A stretch of 41,746 nt of DNA from Candidatus Electronema nielsenii (GTDB taxonomy: Bacteria > Desulfobacterota > Desulfobulbia > Desulfobulbales > Desulfobulbaceae), in assembly GCA_026122915.1 (NCBI GenBank), contig JAGIXO010000004.1, positions 1 through 41,746 of the forward strand, given 5' to 3'. The notes under the pieces are model-generated. The model worked only from the letters and a program-made list of their open reading frames with translations. It ran no database searches and was not told the origin of the DNA. The translations under genes were made by a program, and so were the position numbers. Shown here in pieces: positions 2,082 to 19,740 of the stretch. Position 1 is the first letter of the stretch. Each line of letters opens with the position of its first letter.

Positions 2082-3005
2082 ATGAAAATTACAGCTGACA
2101 TATATCTCGGTGACTGCAACGAGCAGTTACGATTACTTCCAGAAAATTCTATTGATCTAATTATAACATCACCGCCTTATGCAGATCAGAGAAAAAATAC
2201 CTACGGAGGTATTCGTCCAGACGAATATGTCGAATGGTTTCTGCCTGTCTCGGAACAGTTGTTGCGTGTTCTCAAGCCAACTGGAACTTTTATTCTCAAT
2301 ATCAAAGAAAAAGTGGTGGATGGTGAACGCAGCACTTACGTGATGGAACTTATTTTGGCAATGCGCAAGCAGGGCTGGCTGTGGACTGAAGAATTCATCT
2401 GGCATAAAAAAAATTGCTATCCGGGAAAATGGCCGAATCGCTTTCGTGATGCGTGGGAGCGGCTGCTGCAATTCAACAAAAGCAGAAAATTCCACATGTA
2501 TCAAGAAGAAGTGATGGTGCCGATGGGCGATTGGGCAACTTCACGCCTGAAAAAACTTTCTGAGACTGATAAAATCAGAGACAATTCAAAGGTCGGCAGC
2601 GGATTCGGTAAAAATATTTCCAATTGGCTTGACCGCGACAAAGCATATCCAAGCAATGTGTTGCATTTAGCAACTGAATGTGGCAACAAAAAGCACAGCG
2701 CAGCTTTCCCAGAAGCTCTGCCGGAGTGGTTCATTAAACTGTTCACAAGAGAAAACGACACAGTTCTTGATCCGTTCATGGGATCAGGGACGACATTGAT
2801 TGTCGCCAATCGGATGCGGAGAAATTCTATAGGCATTGAGATCATGCCGGAATATTGTGAAGCAGCGAGGAAGCAGCTCATGCCGCAGACGCTGTTTTTG
2901 TTTGAGCCGAGAGCAGAATATGAACAAAATAAATCTGAAAGATGTATCCAGATACGTCGAGCAGAATATAGGCATTTTTCACCAGAAGCGGATTCAAAGC
3001 ATTGA
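2082..3005 (+). CDS. Site-specific DNA methyltransferase (N4-C/N6-A, beta class)
   Basis: Catalytic TSPPY near the N-terminus, H.AAFPE.L motif and SAM-binding VLDPFMGSGTT near the C-terminus. Confidence 0.92.
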   Translation: MKITADIYLGDCNEQLRLLPENSIDLIITSPPYADQRKNTYGGIRPDEYVEWFLPVSEQLLRVLKPTGTFILNIKEKVVDGERSTYVMELILAMRKQGWLWTEEFIWHKKNCYPGKWPNRFRDAWERLLQFNKSRKFHMYQEEVMVPMGDWATSRLKKLSETDKIRDNSKVGSGFGKNISNWLDRDKAYPSNVLHLATECGNKKHSAAFPEALPEWFIKLFTRENDTVLDPFMGSGTTLIVANRMRRNSIGIEIMPEYCEAARKQLMPQTLFLFEPRAEYEQNKSERCIQIRRAEYRHFSPEADSKH

Positions 3006-3654
3006 TGGACTAAAGCTGTCCAATGTCCTCAAAAGAAAAAATCCGTATCTCTTTCGAGCAAAATATCTCTTGACTGCGGAGCAAATTGTCAAAGGTTTAG
3101 TTGACGCACATATTTCTTCTAATGAAGAAACGCTTTTTGGCGACTGGCTGGAAGGTCTTGCCTTGTTTATCAATGCGCAGACGTATGGCGGACGCAAATC
3201 AGGAATACAGGGCATTGATTTGGAATTTGATGCGGATAGCCGACGAAATATAGTGACTATCAAATCTGGCCCTAACTGGGGCAACAGTTCACAGATTGCC
3301 AAGATGCGCTCTGATTTTAAAACAGCTCAAAAAATTTTGCGTACCAGTAATTCCAATCTTCATGTTATGGCCGTCAACGGCTGCTGTTACGGAAAAGACA
3401 GCAAGCCGGACAAAGGAGATTATTTCAAATACTGCGGCCAGCGTTTCTGGGAATTCATCTCTGGGGACAGTGAATTATTTATAGCAATCGTTGAGCCGCT
3501 TGGAAATATGGCAAAAGAAAAAAACGAGGAGTTCCAAAAATCATACGCACAGATGATCAACAGGTTCACTAAAGAATTCGCCAACTCTTTCTGCAACGAC
3601 AGCGGTGAGATAAAATGGGACGAGATGGTTCACTTCAACTCTTCTGCTGAATAA
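2920..3654 (+). CDS. Type II restriction endonuclease, PmeII-like
   Basis: Start taken at ATG 2920 (MNKINLKD). LKRKNPYLF, SS.ETLFGDWLE, GIDLE..IKSGPNWGNSSQ (PD-(D/E)xK-like) and CGQRFWEFISGD; overlaps the MTase gene. Confidence 0.8.
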   Translation: MNKINLKDVSRYVEQNIGIFHQKRIQSIDGLKLSNVLKRKNPYLFRAKYLLTAEQIVKGLVDAHISSNEETLFGDWLEGLALFINAQTYGGRKSGIQGIDLEFDADSRRNIVTIKSGPNWGNSSQIAKMRSDFKTAQKILRTSNSNLHVMAVNGCCYGKDSKPDKGDYFKYCGQRFWEFISGDSELFIAIVEPLGNMAKEKNEEFQKSYAQMINRFTKEFANSFCNDSGEIKWDEMVHFNSSAE

Positions 3655-14232: not shown

Positions 14233-14318
14233 GGAGAGGTGACCGAGTGGCTTAAGGTGCACGCCTGGAACGCGTGTGTACGCAAGTACCGTGAGTTCGA
14301 ATCTCACCCTCTCCGCCA
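14233..14318 (+). tRNA. tRNA-Ser(GGA)
   Basis: GGAGAGG/CCTCTCC acceptor stem with G-CCA end, anticodon arm CACGC-CT-GGA-AC-GCGTG, long variable arm, T-loop GTTCGAATC. Confidence 0.96.
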
Positions 14319-14341
14319 ACATGATAAGCGACCCCAAGTTT

Positions 14342-14443
14342 GACAGCCGGGTCCTGCACAATAAAGAATCGTGAACCCCGTCAGATCCGGAAGGAAGCAG
14401 CGGCAGCGAGACTCTTTATGTGTTGCAGGAGTGCCCGGCTGTC
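14342..14443 (+). ncRNA. ffs: Signal recognition particle RNA (4.5S)
   Basis: Conserved core TCAGATCCGGAAGGAAGCAGC in a long hairpin closed by GACAGCCGGG/CCCGGCTGTC, followed by a T run. Confidence 0.93.
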
Positions 14444-14653
14444 TTTTTTTATGCTCGCTTGCCGCCCCGCAAGAAAGATTGTTATCCTGCCATTCCAAGT
14501 CAAATATGCCTTATATAGTCAATTCAGGCTATTGATTTTTAATCGCAGGAGCAGCCAGCATCTTCCTTTTCCCTTGCAGTCTGCGCTGCCCGCACTGTAT
14601 GCTTTGCCGGGCATTTCCTTTCATACTTCCCAACAGATAAGGAGCACAACAGC

Positions 14654-15124
14654 ATGGACCCTGTTACAATGGCTGTCGTCAACGGCATCGCGTGCGGAGC
14701 AGCAGGCGGTCTTGTCACCGCCACAGTCCCGGCAGCAGTCAAGGCGGCGACCGATGCGTGGAACAGCTTCAAAGCCCTGTTGCAGCGCAAGTTCGGCCAA
14801 GACAGCGCGTTGCTGAAGTCAGTGCAGGAACTGGAGCAGAACCCAGATTCCAAAGCCCGCAAGGATTTAGTTGCGGAGGAGGTGGCGAAGAGCAAGGCGC
14901 ATCAGGATGAAGAGCTGTTGGCTGCTGCGGGCAAGCTGCTGGAGCTGCTCAAGGCAGTACAGCCGCAGGCGGCGTATCACGCTTTGCAGACTGGCTCCGG
15001 GGCAGTGGCGCAAGGGACTGGTGCGGTTGCTGCGGGAGCAGGAGGCATTGCAGTGGGCGGCAATGTGCGGGGAGGCATCAACATGCCGGGCAGCAAGGGT
15101 GGCGAAGATGAGCGCAAGCCCTGA
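14654..15124 (+). CDS. Bell-like helical effector with C-terminal Gly/Ala/Val-rich putative amyloid motif
   Basis: TAAGGAG RBS. N-terminus MDPVTMAVV..IA.GAAGG...DAWNSFKALLQRKF, then LEQNPDS.ARK helical bundle. C-terminal GSGAVAQGTGAVAAGAGGIAVGGNV is shared with the next gene's N-terminus. Confidence 0.75.
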   Translation: MDPVTMAVVNGIACGAAGGLVTATVPAAVKAATDAWNSFKALLQRKFGQDSALLKSVQELEQNPDSKARKDLVAEEVAKSKAHQDEELLAAAGKLLELLKAVQPQAAYHALQTGSGAVAQGTGAVAAGAGGIAVGGNVRGGINMPGSKGGEDERKP

Positions 15125-17039
15125 TGAGCGCACCGGGGCCTGCCCAAGCAACAGCGGCTCTGGGGCAACAGCGCAGGACGGCGCGGTTGCTGCTGGTGAG
15201 AACGGGCTGGCGGCTGGCAGAGACATTAACTTCTACACCAGCAACCAGCCTGCGCCGCCTCCTATCCCCCGCCAGCTTCCCACGCTTGAACCCTGCTTTC
15301 TCCACCGCAAGGAGGAGCTTGCTTGGCTGAACGACAGGCTGCATCCCGGCAAGGTGGCAGCGGTGTGCGGGCCGGGCGGCATGGGCAAGAGCGCGCTTGC
15401 TGCCCAAGCAGTGCATCAGTTGGAGCCAGCCCGCTTCCCGGACGGCATCATCTTCCATAGCTTCTATCATCAGCCGAAGGTGGAGACCGCCCTGCAAGCT
15501 CTCTGCGCGGCCTTTCAGATCGAGGCAAAGGCGGGGCTTGAGACTGCGGTGCGGAATGCCCTCTCAGGCAGGAAGGCGTTGCTCATCCTCGATGGGACGG
15601 AGCAGGCGGATGACCTGCCAGCTCTGCTGCGGCTGCGCGGTGGGTGCGGGGTGCTGATCACCAGCAGGAAGACTGAGGACGCGCTGGATGAGCTGTGGGA
15701 GCTGAAGCGGCTGGACAAGGCGCAGGCAGAAGAGGTGTTCCGGCACTACAGCAAGGTTTCGGGTGATGACGCAAACGTAGCGGGCATTTGCAAGATACTG
15801 GACGGCTGGCCGGTTGCTCTGCGGATTGCGGGTCGGTATCTGCGCAGGACGAAAGAGAGCGCGGCCTTGCTGCTGCGGCGCAGCGTGGATGCGGTGAGTG
15901 CTGATGCCCGGCTTGCGCTGGGCTTGGCAGGCTGCTTGGCCTTTGCGCCGCTTGCCCGCGAGCCGGTGGCTGCCATTCTCGATGGTGATGAACGCCGAAG
16001 CCGCGCCGCCCTGAACGAGCTGGTCACATACGGCCTGCTGGAGAAGCGCGAGGAACGCTGGCAGATAAGCCACGCGCTCATCCACACCTACGCCCGCAAA
16101 GAGCTGGCCCTGAGCACAGAGAGCATGAAGCAGCTGGCAGACTGGTACATTGCTTTCTGCAAGGCTGCGAGCAATGAAGGCTTGAAGGGCTACGCCCGCC
16201 TTGATGGAGAGCGGGCGCACTGCCTGCGGCTGATGGAGAGCTGCCTTGCTATCAAGCTGTTTGGAGAGTTGAGCCACTTGGTCGTGTTCATGGATAACTA
16301 TTTAGATCTGCAAGGTCACTGGACAGAACATCAAGATGCTTTCAATATGATGTTGGCTGCTGATCAGCAAGCAGGTGAGTACAAACATAAAGCATGGAGC
16401 CTTAATCAATTAGGGCTTACCTGCCGTAAACGTGGCGAGTATGCGAAGGCTCTGGAGTGCTTCAACCAGAGTTTTGAGATATATTGCGAAATAGATGATC
16501 AGCAAGCAAAAGGAACAATTCTGAATAATATTGGTTGGACGCATGATATACAAGGTAAATATGAGTACGCCTTGCAATATTACAAAAAGAGTTTAAGCAT
16601 ACGTCGAAGGATTGGCGACCGAAGGGGTATAGGTCAAACATTGACTAATATCGCAATGATTTATACAGTCCAAGGCAAGTATGAGATAGCGTTGAAGTAT
16701 CTTAAATGTGACTTGGCTATATGCCGAAATACTAAAGATAAGGTTGGAGAGGCTGCGACCTTGAACGGTATTGGCTCAGTTTACTATCATAAAGGTAGTT
16801 TCATAAAGGCACTGAGATATTTGAGACAAGCCTTAGATATAGCGCAAGAGTATGGAGACAAGGCTGGTGAGACAGTAACTTGCTTTAACATAGCAGGTGT
16901 TTTTCATGCTCAAGGCAACCTTGCCAAGGCAGAGGAACACCTCAGCCAAGCCGTGCAGCTTGCAGAGCAGATCGGCTATCCTTCTTTGGAGCAATGGCGC
17001 GAAGGATTGGCACGGGTGCGGGCAGCGCGGCGGGGGTAA
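15108..17039 (+). CDS. NLR-like STAND protein: N-terminal putative amyloid motif, NB-ARC, five 40-aa TPR repeats (643 aa)
   Basis: Start taken at ATG 15108. PRQLP..FLHR..EL, Walker A GPGGMGKS, Walker B LLILDG, LITSR, GWPVAL (GxP), ISHALIH (MHD-like) and TPR units such as GTILNNIG...QGKYEYALQYYKKSL. Confidence 0.88.
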   Translation: MSASPDERTGACPSNSGSGATAQDGAVAAGENGLAAGRDINFYTSNQPAPPPIPRQLPTLEPCFLHRKEELAWLNDRLHPGKVAAVCGPGGMGKSALAAQAVHQLEPARFPDGIIFHSFYHQPKVETALQALCAAFQIEAKAGLETAVRNALSGRKALLILDGTEQADDLPALLRLRGGCGVLITSRKTEDALDELWELKRLDKAQAEEVFRHYSKVSGDDANVAGICKILDGWPVALRIAGRYLRRTKESAALLLRRSVDAVSADARLALGLAGCLAFAPLAREPVAAILDGDERRSRAALNELVTYGLLEKREERWQISHALIHTYARKELALSTESMKQLADWYIAFCKAASNEGLKGYARLDGERAHCLRLMESCLAIKLFGELSHLVVFMDNYLDLQGHWTEHQDAFNMMLAADQQAGEYKHKAWSLNQLGLTCRKRGEYAKALECFNQSFEIYCEIDDQQAKGTILNNIGWTHDIQGKYEYALQYYKKSLSIRRRIGDRRGIGQTLTNIAMIYTVQGKYEIALKYLKCDLAICRNTKDKVGEAATLNGIGSVYYHKGSFIKALRYLRQALDIAQEYGDKAGETVTCFNIAGVFHAQGNLAKAEEHLSQAVQLAEQIGYPSLEQWREGLARVRAARRG

Positions 17040-17059: not shown

Positions 17060-17133
17060 GTAGGGGCAGGCCCCCGTGCCTGCCCGTCGTTGCAATCGGG
17101 ACACGCAGGGCGGCCACAGGGGGCCGCCCCTAC
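17060..17133. repeat. Inverted pair of GTAG-type REP elements (REPIN-like doublet)
   Basis: GTAGGGGCAGGCCCCCGTGCCTGCCC (17060-17085) faces GGGCGGCCACAGGGGGCCGCCCCTAC (17108-17133); each has a GTAG foot and an internal palindrome. Confidence 0.8.
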
Positions 17134-17188
17134 GGGGTTTGGTATGCACAGGCTGGGGCGAACCGTATGAGGAGTCTATCTCTCTGCT

Positions 17189-17411
17189 CCCCACCAGAGT
17201 GCGGCCAACCGTTGCACTCCAGTGGAACCGCAACTTGCACGAGAGTGAAAGCCGCCATTGCACTCTCGTGAAACGATCCGTTGCACTCTCGTGAAACGAT
17301 CCGTTGTACTCTCGTGCAATGCACCGTTGCACGAGAGAAGTATCCACCGTTGTACTCTCGTGCAACGTGCCGTTGTACTCTGGTGCAACCAATCTTTGCA
17401 CTCTGGCGCGG
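17189..17411. repeat. Tandem array, 23-bp period, 9 units plus 1 degenerate, core TTGYAC-TCTC/GAGA-GTGMAA
   Basis: Cores begin exactly at 17212, 17235, 17258, 17281, 17304, 17327, 17350, 17373 and 17396, with a partial unit in phase at 17189. Confidence 0.92.
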
Positions 17412-17488: not shown

Positions 17489-17965
17489 ATGAACTGGCAG
17501 GAAGTGTGCGCTGATCCGCGCTTGCATGATTTGCCGTATAAAATTGAACTCAATGAACGAGGGCAAATTCTGATGAGTCCAGTCCGCCTGTATCACTCCG
17601 CCTTTCAGGGGAAAATAATCAAGCTGCTGACTCAGCTTGTGCAATGCGGAGAAGCCTTTCCTGAATTCGCCATCGCCACAGAAAAAGGCACTAAGGTTGC
17701 TGATGTGGTCTGGTGTTCTGATGCGCTGTGGCAGCAAATCAAACATCAGGCGGAAAGCCCTGTTGCCCCGGAAATCTGCGTGGAAGTGCTGTCCGCAACA
17801 AACACGGCGGAAGAAATGCTGGAAAAGAGACGGCTGTATTTCATGCACGGCGCGGAAGAGGTTTGGATTTGCGATCAAGATGGAACGATGCAGTTCTTTG
17901 TTGCCGCCGGAGAAATTGCACATTCAAACATTGTCCATGCTTTTCCGAAGCGCATTGCATTGTAA
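17489..17965 (+). CDS. Uma2 family (PD-(D/E)xK) putative endonuclease
   Basis: AGGAG RBS; KIELNERGQILMSP..H, KVADVVW, APEICVEVLS and Y...GAEEVWI. Confidence 0.88.
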   Translation: MNWQEVCADPRLHDLPYKIELNERGQILMSPVRLYHSAFQGKIIKLLTQLVQCGEAFPEFAIATEKGTKVADVVWCSDALWQQIKHQAESPVAPEICVEVLSATNTAEEMLEKRRLYFMHGAEEVWICDQDGTMQFFVAAGEIAHSNIVHAFPKRIAL

Positions 17966-17989: not shown

Positions 17990-19740
17990 TTGTCCTATCT
18001 CGTCCTTGCCCGCAAATCCCGGCCTCAGAACTTCGTTCAGGTCGTTGGCCAACAGCACATCGTCCGTACCCTGCGCAACGCCCTCCTGCGCAATCGGGTG
18101 CCGCACGCCCTGATCTTCAGTGGAGTGCGCGGCACCGGCAAGACTACGCTGGCCCGGATTATGGCCAAGGCTCTCAACTGCGAGAGCGGACAGCCGCCGG
18201 AACCGTGCTGCTCCTGCCGCTCCTGCAAAGAAATCGCTGCGGGTAATTCTGTTGATCTGCACGAGATCGACGGTGCATCCAACCGAGGCATTCAGGAAAT
18301 CCGCGAGCTGAAAGAGAACATCCGCTTCATGCCGGTCATGTCGCGCTTCAAGATCATCATCATTGATGAAGTACACATGCTGACCACCGAGGCCTTCAAC
18401 GCTCTGCTGAAGACCTTGGAGGAACCGCCCGCACACGTTTATTTCATGTTCGCCACCACTGAGCTGCACAAAGTGCCGGTGACGATTCTCTCCCGCTGCC
18501 AGCGGTATGAGCTGAAACGGGTGGCGAGCAACGAGTTGTCCGCTCATTTCGCCTCGCTTGCCAAAAGTGAAGGGATTGCTGTTGAGTCAGCCGCGCTGAA
18601 CATGGTGGTGCGGGCTGCTGGCGGCTCGGTTCGCGACGGCCTCAGCCTGTTAGATCAGTTGTTCTCCTATTGCGGCGAGCAGGTTTCCGCCCAAGATGCG
18701 GCAGAGGTGCTGGGCATGGTTGGCGGCGAAGTGATTGCTGGGACAGCCCAGGCTCTGCTCACGGGCGACTTGGCCGCTGCGCTTGATCGGCTGGAGACGG
18801 TGACGGCGACCGGCATGGACATCAAACGCTTCATCAACGAGTTGTTGGCGTGGTTCCGCGGCCTCGTGGTCTGTCGTGTGAGCAAAGACCCGGCCCAACT
18901 CCTCGACCTGCCTGCGGACGAACTGTCTCTGCTGCAAGAGACCGCCGCCAGCCATTCGGCTCAAACGCTTTTCCTGCTCTTCAATCTGCTCATGGAGAGC
19001 TTGGAAAAGGCGGCTTGGTCGTCGCGGCCCCGCTTTGCCGTGGAGATGGCTTTTATCCGCGCGGTACAGGCTGAAGAGGTGGTGCCAGTGACCGAGCTGC
19101 TGGGCCGTTTGGATAGCATTCTCGCCGGAGTTGCTTTGCCGCAGACGACAGAGCCAGCCGCGTTTTACGACAAAAAAAAACTGTAGTTCCTGAACGCAGC
19201 GTCGCCAAAGCCTCAGAGCCACCGCCCGCGCCGCCTTTGCCGGAGGAAGATATTCCGCATCCGGCAGAACAGCCGCCCTCCCTTCCCCCGCAGAAGGTTG
19301 CGGCGGGAGAGCGTGACATCCGCAAGGACTGGCCAGACTTCATCAAATCGGTGAAAAAACCGTGGATCGCTTCAGCCTTGGAGAAGGCGGCTTCGGTTCA
19401 TCTGGAAAACGGCAGGCTGATTCTCACCTACCATGATTCGATCGAATGCAGCACGCTCAAAATCAAAGAGCAGCGGGCCGAACTGACCGCGCTGGTCAGC
19501 GATTTTTTTCAGGAAAGCCTGAGCGTAGTCTTTGACGAGCCAAAAGCCTGCGGCCTGCCTGCGGAATCCGGCGGCGCGGAGGCGGTGCGCAAGGAGCGGC
19601 AGGCTTTGGTCGATGATCCCTTAGTGGTGTTAGCAGCGGAGATTTTCAACGGCCAAGTTGGTGACATTCGGGTCGGACCGCAGTATAAGAAACCGTTGGC
19701 AGCGGCAGAAGAGACTACCGAGGGTAGCGACGAAGTGTAA
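17990..19740 (+). CDS. dnaX: DNA polymerase III gamma/tau. The zero frame 17990-19186 gives the gamma-like form (398 aa); the full tau-like form (about 583 aa) needs a -1 shift at A9 (19172-19180)
   Basis: YLVLARKSRPQ, GVRGTGKTT, EIDGASNRG, IIDEVHML, ILSRCQ. The -1 frame is open from the A run to TAA 19740 and encodes a Pro-rich linker plus a C-terminal domain ending DDPLV..AAEIFNG. Confidence 0.9.

Follow-up and report, generated by a model that had tools for sequence, protein, structure and literature searches.

Bacterial Bell/BASS pairs, as set out in the available text of their description (10.1101/2020.01.06.895854), are collinear overlapping genes whose effector carries an acidic residue 2 and five helices, and they are described there mainly in Actinobacteria and Cyanobacteria. 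The BASS classes assayed so far (BASS1, 3 and 11) gave fibrils and cross-seeding, according to the accessible portions of this paper and of a later one (10.1101/2024.11.07.622273). The later source presents Bab/Agp (BASS11) as a proven model of abortive infection in E. coli, with amyloid-triggered death upon phage infection, and, in the same accessible portions, calls the biological role of NLR-type Bell/BASS pairs unresolved. The fungal systems NWD2/HET-S and PNT1/HELLP likewise place an NLR next to a membrane-targeting effector with a common motif. Here, we describe a gene pair on a 41,746-nucleotide (nt) contig of Candidatus Electronema nielsenii (JAGIXO010000004.1, assembly GCA_026122915.1; the whole contig is referred to as the window). 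It consists of a Bell effector and an NB-ARC/TPR receptor with a BASS6-class motif and is probably an amyloid-triggered cell-death switch, although this copy of the receptor may not work. Amyloid formation, killing and phage defence are what we infer from HET-S and Bab/Agp.

The effector and receptor open reading frames (ORFs) overlap by 17 nt (receptor ATG at 15108, effector stop at 15124). Rechecking the coordinates confirmed both frames, the overlap and the two motif positions claimed by a first-pass annotation of the window, and its reading of the layout as Bell plus NB-ARC/TPR was borne out by ORFs, profiles and a helix model. The effector begins Met-Asp-Pro, with the acidic residue at position 2 or 3 that marks Bell proteins (Asp2), and its hydrophobic N-terminal stretch (hydropathy 1.0-1.5, with 1.46 as the highest value over 19 residues) is predicted to be a membrane-inserting helix. 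Five helices were modelled by AlphaFold2 (residues 3-13, 27-47, 52-62, 67-79 and 86-102), as in the roughly 100-amino-acid (aa) N-terminal domain of these short proteins, the effector measuring 156 aa versus the typical 120-140 aa. Homology to the published effector-side set is indirect: the effector matches P0026, the Candidatus Electrothrix marina protein RWX52249.1, with E=4e-19, and the last 36 residues of P0026 are letter for letter the entry C09_s090 in the accessible part of PMC8086366. The Pfam family HetE-N was matched with E=9e-4, under the family cut-off, and with E<=0.1 in 13 of 30 homologues. A profile built from 19 cable-bacterial Bell domains retrieved 3337 representatives at E<=0.001, and most of the 148 newly listed representatives bear short motif-like tails, some of them canonical BASS6-like or BASS3-like by eye. 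Matches in the ESM Atlas, at the level of a lead, were HetE-N clusters (0.94) and one HetE-N/RHIM cluster (0.93). Fold searches with the Bell model gave no clear match to a solved HeLo, MLKL or Babybell domain (no Foldseek hit at E<=0.001), the best VIA score (Z 6.0) falling on unrelated bundles; a profile search of PDB sequences with Bell returned nothing below E=0.19, and NCBIfam did not name the effector.

The adjacent collinear gene encodes NB-ARC and TPR regions, and both Walker A and Walker B are present. Its family profile matches AfsR (E=2e-15) and APAF-1 (E=1e-12), and an intact homologue, when modelled, agrees in fold with APAF-1 and with plant NRC structures. Similar to these NB-ARC STAND NTPases, the receptor matches in profile and fold over the whole NB-ARC; unlike them, it has no SARP or CARD and carries a 24-residue motif instead. 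Overall, the pair resembles the Bell/BASS6/NB-ARC-TPR pairs, as these appear in the available parts of 10.1101/2020.01.06.895854 and PMC8086366, in architecture, overlap, acidic residue, hydrophobic helix and motif class. With Bab/Agp (10.1101/2024.11.07.622273, accessible portions) it has in common a Bell-type effector, a 'MEPIS'-like start and a matched motif on the adjacent sensor. However, the Bab/Agp sensor is TPR-GreA/B-C-PIN without an NTPase, the motif is BASS11, Babybell has about 80 aa and the host is unicellular, whereas the partner here is NB-ARC/TPR, with no GreA or PIN among the best 25 of 32 Pfam matches. PNT1 is also NB-ARC/TPR in the part of PMC7889193 available, but the fungal systems use unrelated motif families (HRAM, PP) and a HeLo/HELL effector.

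Effector tail and receptor head are identical in 15 of 25 columns, with the same codon in 8 and a synonymous one in 7. Nucleotide identity at codon positions 1, 2 and 3 is 18/24, 19/24 and 8/24 (positions 1 and 2 against 3, Fisher p=6e-4), which at sequence level shows selection on the motif peptide, as proposed earlier from the differing codons. Within the 1.76-Mb genome, the two motifs are each other's best non-self match (E about 5e-4), the next-best E being 0.53 with the effector motif as query and 0.062 with the receptor motif. The pair reached z=9.3 against 500 composition-preserving shuffles and ranked second among 735 adjacent same-strand ORF pairs of the genome (score 68; mean 22.8, standard deviation 6.0). 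Rank 1 (score 74) was taken by another matched-motif pair, a hydrophobic membrane-type protein with a class-E-like tail and an overlapping gene with a hydrophobic N-terminus and the same class-E-like motif (G000:C32:1913-2990, L156, where G000 is this genome). Between 15108 and 15354, a point five codons ahead of Walker A, the frame contains no ATG, GTG or TTG; the motif therefore belongs to the receptor, and a receptor start 3' of the motif, an alternative raised in the first-pass annotation, is implausible and was rejected. It could be argued that the likeness has no function and stems from a recent local duplication or from Gly/Ala sequence of low complexity, as the motifs are of low complexity, lie 163 nt apart and have 45 of 72 nt in common. 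We consider this very improbable, since identity is close to random at third codon positions but preserved at positions 1 and 2 (37/48), the score far exceeds that of composition-preserving shuffles and matching recurs across four unrelated motif classes; a recent duplication was rejected on the codon-position pattern.

Motif clusters are named here after the BASS data set in PMC8086366 (C01-style labels), and classes were assigned by search and by eye. The window effector motif is 88% identical to that of P0026, whose gene adjoins an NB-ARC gene with a matched head (L086), and C09_s023 and C09_s080 resemble it as well. In the accessible part of PMC8086366, Table 1 lists 111 BASS6 members and cluster C09 runs to s111; for eight further clusters, the highest index coincides with the size given in the table, and C02 goes up to s328 of 329. 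Because cluster sizes agree with the table, C09 is, by a tight argument from set sizes, BASS6. The earlier suggestion of a possibly unclassified motif family was therefore rejected: the window motif falls in C09, which already holds a cable-bacterial member. Bell genes with a BASS6-class motif were also found in Anaerolineae, Acidobacteria and Competibacteraceae, some adjoining a matched-head partner; a wider contig scan of 16 of 64 parts, which gives no range estimate, contained at least 8 loci. In Candidatus Contendobacter, Bell, BASS6-type motif, NACHT and an FGE-sulfatase-like domain stand in one ORF (L113:2935-6063), and a similar ORF in Competibacteraceae (L111) is followed by a free Bell whose tail resembles C09_s023. 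The window receptor frame is open for 79 codons 5' of its own ATG (14871-15107), likewise in genome G001. A frameshift giving a fused Bell-receptor product was considered on account of this open frame, which starts at 14871, and of the fused form in Candidatus Contendobacter; it is a candidate only.

Homologous pairs keep matched motifs, as a co-variation check proposed in the first-pass annotation would have it. Among 27 cable-bacterial Bell genes with a long same-strand downstream gene, the tail matches the neighbour's head in 25 (p<=0.008 against 500 shuffles), with a mean cognate score of 63.7 versus 33.4 +/- 3.1 when permuted (permuted maximum 49.0 in 20000). Twelve Bell hits that were orphan, truncated, fused or at a contig end were left out (L010, L011, L014, L018, L080, L087, L089, L091, L092, L098, L100 and L105). 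Matched-head partners include NB-ARC, NACHT, NTPase-less TPR and FGE-sulfatase-like proteins, and the Bell tails fall into four classes, namely B (BASS6), C, D and F, of which class C resembles BASS3 entries by eye. Motif class is scattered over the Bell tree (12 changes versus a shuffled mean of 14.2), and Bell domains 97, 90, 89 and 85% identical bear different classes. The sister species G007 has the orthologous locus (L022) with flanks 88-92% identical, similarity by blastn breaking at 14973-15242 and 16127-17006. The G007 Bell, which is 97% identical, and its NB-ARC are sisters of those in the window, both G007 proteins carry class C, and the C-terminal sensor of the G007 receptor is a different one. 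In addition, a contig from public run X19 matches 14549-14954 as well as 15287-15377 and carries 286 other letters in the interval. Judged by these comparisons, the motif pair is shown to have been exchanged as one cassette among relatives. As both motifs flank the gene junction, one recombination event would swap both, keep the match and change the signalling class. Allelic motif-pair exchange at one orthologous locus and two-class receptor heads set these loci apart from the Bell/BASS pairs in the available text of 10.1101/2020.01.06.895854, where neither was seen. The TPR block differs from the NB-ARC in GC content at third codon positions (0.38 versus 0.76) and in identity to 18 TPR-bearing kin (0.42-0.49 versus 0.60-0.78), and is likely an exchanged sensor block.

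We propose that the variable TPR block would sense an invader cue, most likely a phage protein, whereupon the NB-ARC would exchange nucleotide and oligomerise. The clustered N-terminal motifs would then nucleate a cross-beta seed that converts the effector tail, and the Bell bundle would free its hydrophobic N-terminal helix into the inner membrane, so that this one cell of the filament dies. The term "prion-like" used in the first-pass annotation holds in the sense of templating; it does not hold in the sense of a natural prion, since most such systems are not natural prions according to the accessible part of PMC7889193. A complex prediction with three effector tails and two receptor heads scored 0.02 and was used neither for nor against the proposal.

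Several observations weigh against this interpretation. The first-pass annotation overlooked a 75-nt in-frame deletion in the receptor: 25 residues that occur in all 21 aligned homologues are gone, which also distinguishes it from described Bell/BASS pairs. The segment has 4 invariant and 6 near-invariant columns and comprises the last HD1 helix (modelled at 198-207) together with the linker that leads to the winged helix, so that the window receptor lacks the complete HD1 and winged-helix linker of a functional NB-ARC. An 11-nt stretch at the junction aligns to both segment ends in L022, 75 nt apart, a pattern compatible with slippage, be it in vivo or during assembly. For 309 nt, a contig of run X1 agrees with the window at every letter before it enters the undeleted segment; runs X2, X3 and X7, made from the same sample, gave contigs that likewise run into or across it, and the deleted form was found in no contig from 8 of 24 listed public runs. 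Public runs covered at most 0.15 of the words of this locus, which precluded confirmation of the deleted allele at read level; the genome itself derives from none of them. The window copy may thus be dead, deregulated or mis-assembled; loss of function is the most likely for this allele, ahead of an assembly slip or deregulation. Two of the 27 pairs are unmatched (L019, L106), and the co-variation is not independent evidence, because one cassette carries both motifs and the genomes are kin. Furthermore, a neighbouring Bell gene is absent from 17 of the 24 receptors in this NB-ARC clade, so that the two are not regularly adjacent; PADLOC offers no effector model, and the single RNA run examined gave contigs of a relative. 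Finally, the window motif is rich in Gly/Ala, its Asn/Gln content lies below the BASS average given in the available text (10.1101/2020.01.06.895854), and the accessible parts of the Bell/BASS papers, in which BASS1, 3 and 11 were tested, report no BASS6 peptide as amyloid.

This last point would also fit an alternative explanation, namely that the motifs are a specific pairing module rather than an amyloid, three xGAVAxG-like units folding into a small beta-roll or a beta-helix rung, by which receptor and effector would bind stoichiometrically. Their Gly/Ala-rich internal repeats and a weak similarity to YadA heads (E=0.14; E<=0.1 in 4 of 30 members, best 0.0066) point in the same direction. 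However, the BASS classes tested in the accessible reports all formed fibrils and cross-seeded, and the effector tail is predicted to be unfolded in the monomer (pLDDT below 50). Moreover, motif classes unrelated to each other, including a BASS3-like one, occur on the same Bell domain, as would suit a templating switch of a generic kind. We therefore consider a pairing module unlikely and keep the amyloid-triggered switch as the preferred reading. The coordinates of the locus are collected in Table 1.

Table 1 Coordinates of the Bell/receptor locus and of its borders in the window
Feature	Positions	Strand	Basis
Effector gene, 156 aa, Bell-type helical domain and C-terminal BASS6 motif	14654..15124	+	ORF, homology, model
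Bell domain, residues 1-104, five predicted helices	14654..14965	+	AlphaFold2, hydropathy
Effector-side motif, residues 114-138, BASS6 class	14993..15067	+	88% identity to P0026 motif
Receptor gene, 643 aa: motif, NB-ARC, TPR	15108..17039	+	ORF, Pfam, profile, fold
Receptor-side motif, residues 17-40	15156..15227	+	genome search, shuffles, codon comparison
Exchangeable cassette (both motifs and gene junction), outer limits	14955..15286	+	run X19 contig, blastn against L022
NB-ARC module	15270..16097	+	sequence, alignments
Walker A; Walker B (within NB-ARC)	15369-15392; 15579-15593	+	sequence, alignments
Junction of 75-nt in-frame deletion in receptor	15855..15865 (approx.)	+	21/21 homologues, L022 alignment
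TPR sensor region, low GC, poorly conserved	16308..16937	+	GC at third codon positions, identity to kin
tRNA (14233-14315) and signal recognition particle (SRP) RNA (14345-14443), left border of variable slot	14233..14443	+	Rfam
REP-like hairpin (17060-17133) and 23-nt tandem array (17189-17409), behind receptor	17060..17409	.	sequence repeats
Uma2 putative endonuclease gene, right slot border	17489..17965	+	Pfam Uma2 E=2e-16, synteny with G007
dnaX (presumed name), right slot border after Uma2	start 17990	+	synteny with G007

The pair lies in a variable slot. Between SRP RNA and the gene at 17990, which we take from its sequence to be dnaX, G008 has a Phd/YoeB pair and an NLR, and G006 has a ParE gene among others; in G001, G002 and G003 the two slot flanks were not found together. 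The hairpin behind the receptor is one that we assume to be of the REP type. The 23-nt array also occurs near related receptor genes in L040, L043, L046, L048, L050, L054 and L057, and this array may mark a mobile or recombination element. A promoter scan gave 3 sites versus 1.4 +/- 1.2 by chance, that is, nothing above chance level. A second defence spot in the window lies in a low-GC stretch at 2082-3654 and consists of a DNA methylase and an EcoO109I-type restriction endonuclease.

The host is a cable bacterium of the Desulfobulbaceae type. Its genus belongs to the same family as, and is sister to, the genus encoding the named Candidatus Electrothrix proteins; the filamentous deltaproteobacterial host proposed earlier is thus supported, its filamentous and multicellular habit, as expected of a host of Bell/BASS NLR pairs, being judged from taxonomy. 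Effector homologues were found in 10 of 61 related genomes and in 2 of 36 genera, both cable-bacterial, and NB-ARC receptor homologues followed the same pattern (10 of 41 related genomes). By profile search, the Bell gene is present in 9 of 10 genomes of its own genus and in 12 of 14 of the second genus (21/24). Among the relatives searched, the Bell family is confined to two cable-bacterial genera. The accessible Bell/BASS text (10.1101/2020.01.06.895854) does not name cable bacteria, while Table S2 of that paper may already list Electrothrix pairs; no literature linking cable bacteria or Electronema to NLR or amyloid was found, subscription journals being outside coverage.

Such a distribution raises the question of what the switch is for. 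It could serve development or stress (sacrificial cells, filament breakage, dispersal) instead of phage defence. Nearly all cable bacteria have the Bell family, which was not found in their non-cable kin, and cable-bacterial ghost cells exist, for which the part of PMC12163305 available raises deliberate death for filament breakage as an option and leaves it open, naming only caspase-domain genes. However, filament ends and oxic samples are enriched in these ghost cells, for which oxidative stress could account (PMC12163305, same part). Sensors that are hypervariable, a copy number that changes, the exchange of cassettes and a slot common with toxin-antitoxin genes moreover resemble an arms race rather than a fixed programme of development. 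A developmental role consequently appears improbable to us, and TPR variability, the GC shift and the slot with other defence-type genes are indirect signs of the defence role that we prefer.

The Bell-less receptors extend the picture beyond single loci. All 17 bear motif-like heads, and 15 of these combine two classes in tandem, as labelled by eye. Visual comparison matched orphan heads to a resident Bell tail in G001, G003, G006, G007 and G016, but not in G002, G004, G008 and G009. In G001, an orphan BASS6 Bell (L025:3096-3673) has behind it no more of a receptor gene than its final codons; elsewhere in this genome, an orphan receptor whose head is A+BASS6 (L024:3271-5364) is a candidate in-trans partner for it. 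Motif A gave 4-10 matches per genome in all 11 cable-bacterial genomes and none in 30 other relatives; its carriers are TPR sensors, TIR proteins, small motif-first helical proteins and some Bell tails, behind BASS6. A Bell with a class A tail was not found in the window's own genome, which is 69% complete. A search of part of the BASS data for short strings of classes A, C, D, E and F gave no match, although an exact-string search is weak and gives a lead only.

Among the motif A carriers, a small protein with an N-terminal motif A and a helical domain ending in a hydrophobic helix has a reversed architecture (G000:C181:11640-12035, L123:1471-1866). Its gene lies directly upstream of a motif-A TPR gene and has homologues in G001, G002, G008 and G016; the protein has no Pfam match and a weak PADLOC match to PDC-M14B. 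TIR proteins carry motif A at the N-terminus or behind TIR (L122:1480-2670 in G002, L131, L134). NTPase-less TPR proteins with motif-like N-termini in the genome itself are G000:C68:9934-11247 (A+E), C71:1349-2980 (A) and C118:777-1871 (another). A further STAND-type protein is encoded at G000:C79:19676-22249, with an N-terminal region that we take to resemble a caspase-type domain.

Branched amyloid pathways have been predicted in fungi (PMC7889193, accessible part). We tentatively put forward, as a possibility of less than even probability, that cable bacteria run a genome-wide combinatorial amyloid-signalling immune network, in which many unlinked NB-ARC/TPR, NACHT and NTPase-less TPR sensors would serve a few Bells. 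Cassettes would re-code specificity, two-class receptors would bridge channels, and motif A would join sensors to TIR and reversed-architecture proteins. Such a network might be the controlled death behind ghost cells, killing single cells and leaving the conductive periplasm intact.

The motif class, including a cable-bacterial member in the published set, is already known; what is notable is the lineage-wide expansion. The value lies in this lineage-wide pattern and in the natural cassette swaps, the window locus itself being ordinary and possibly broken. The near-isogenic natural swaps, in which Bell domains 85-97% identical carry different classes, are reagents for the question of whether motif class alone sets signalling specificity. 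The Bell/BASS family is a named candidate for deliberate cell death in cable bacteria, a lineage that the available Bell/BASS text leaves undiscussed.

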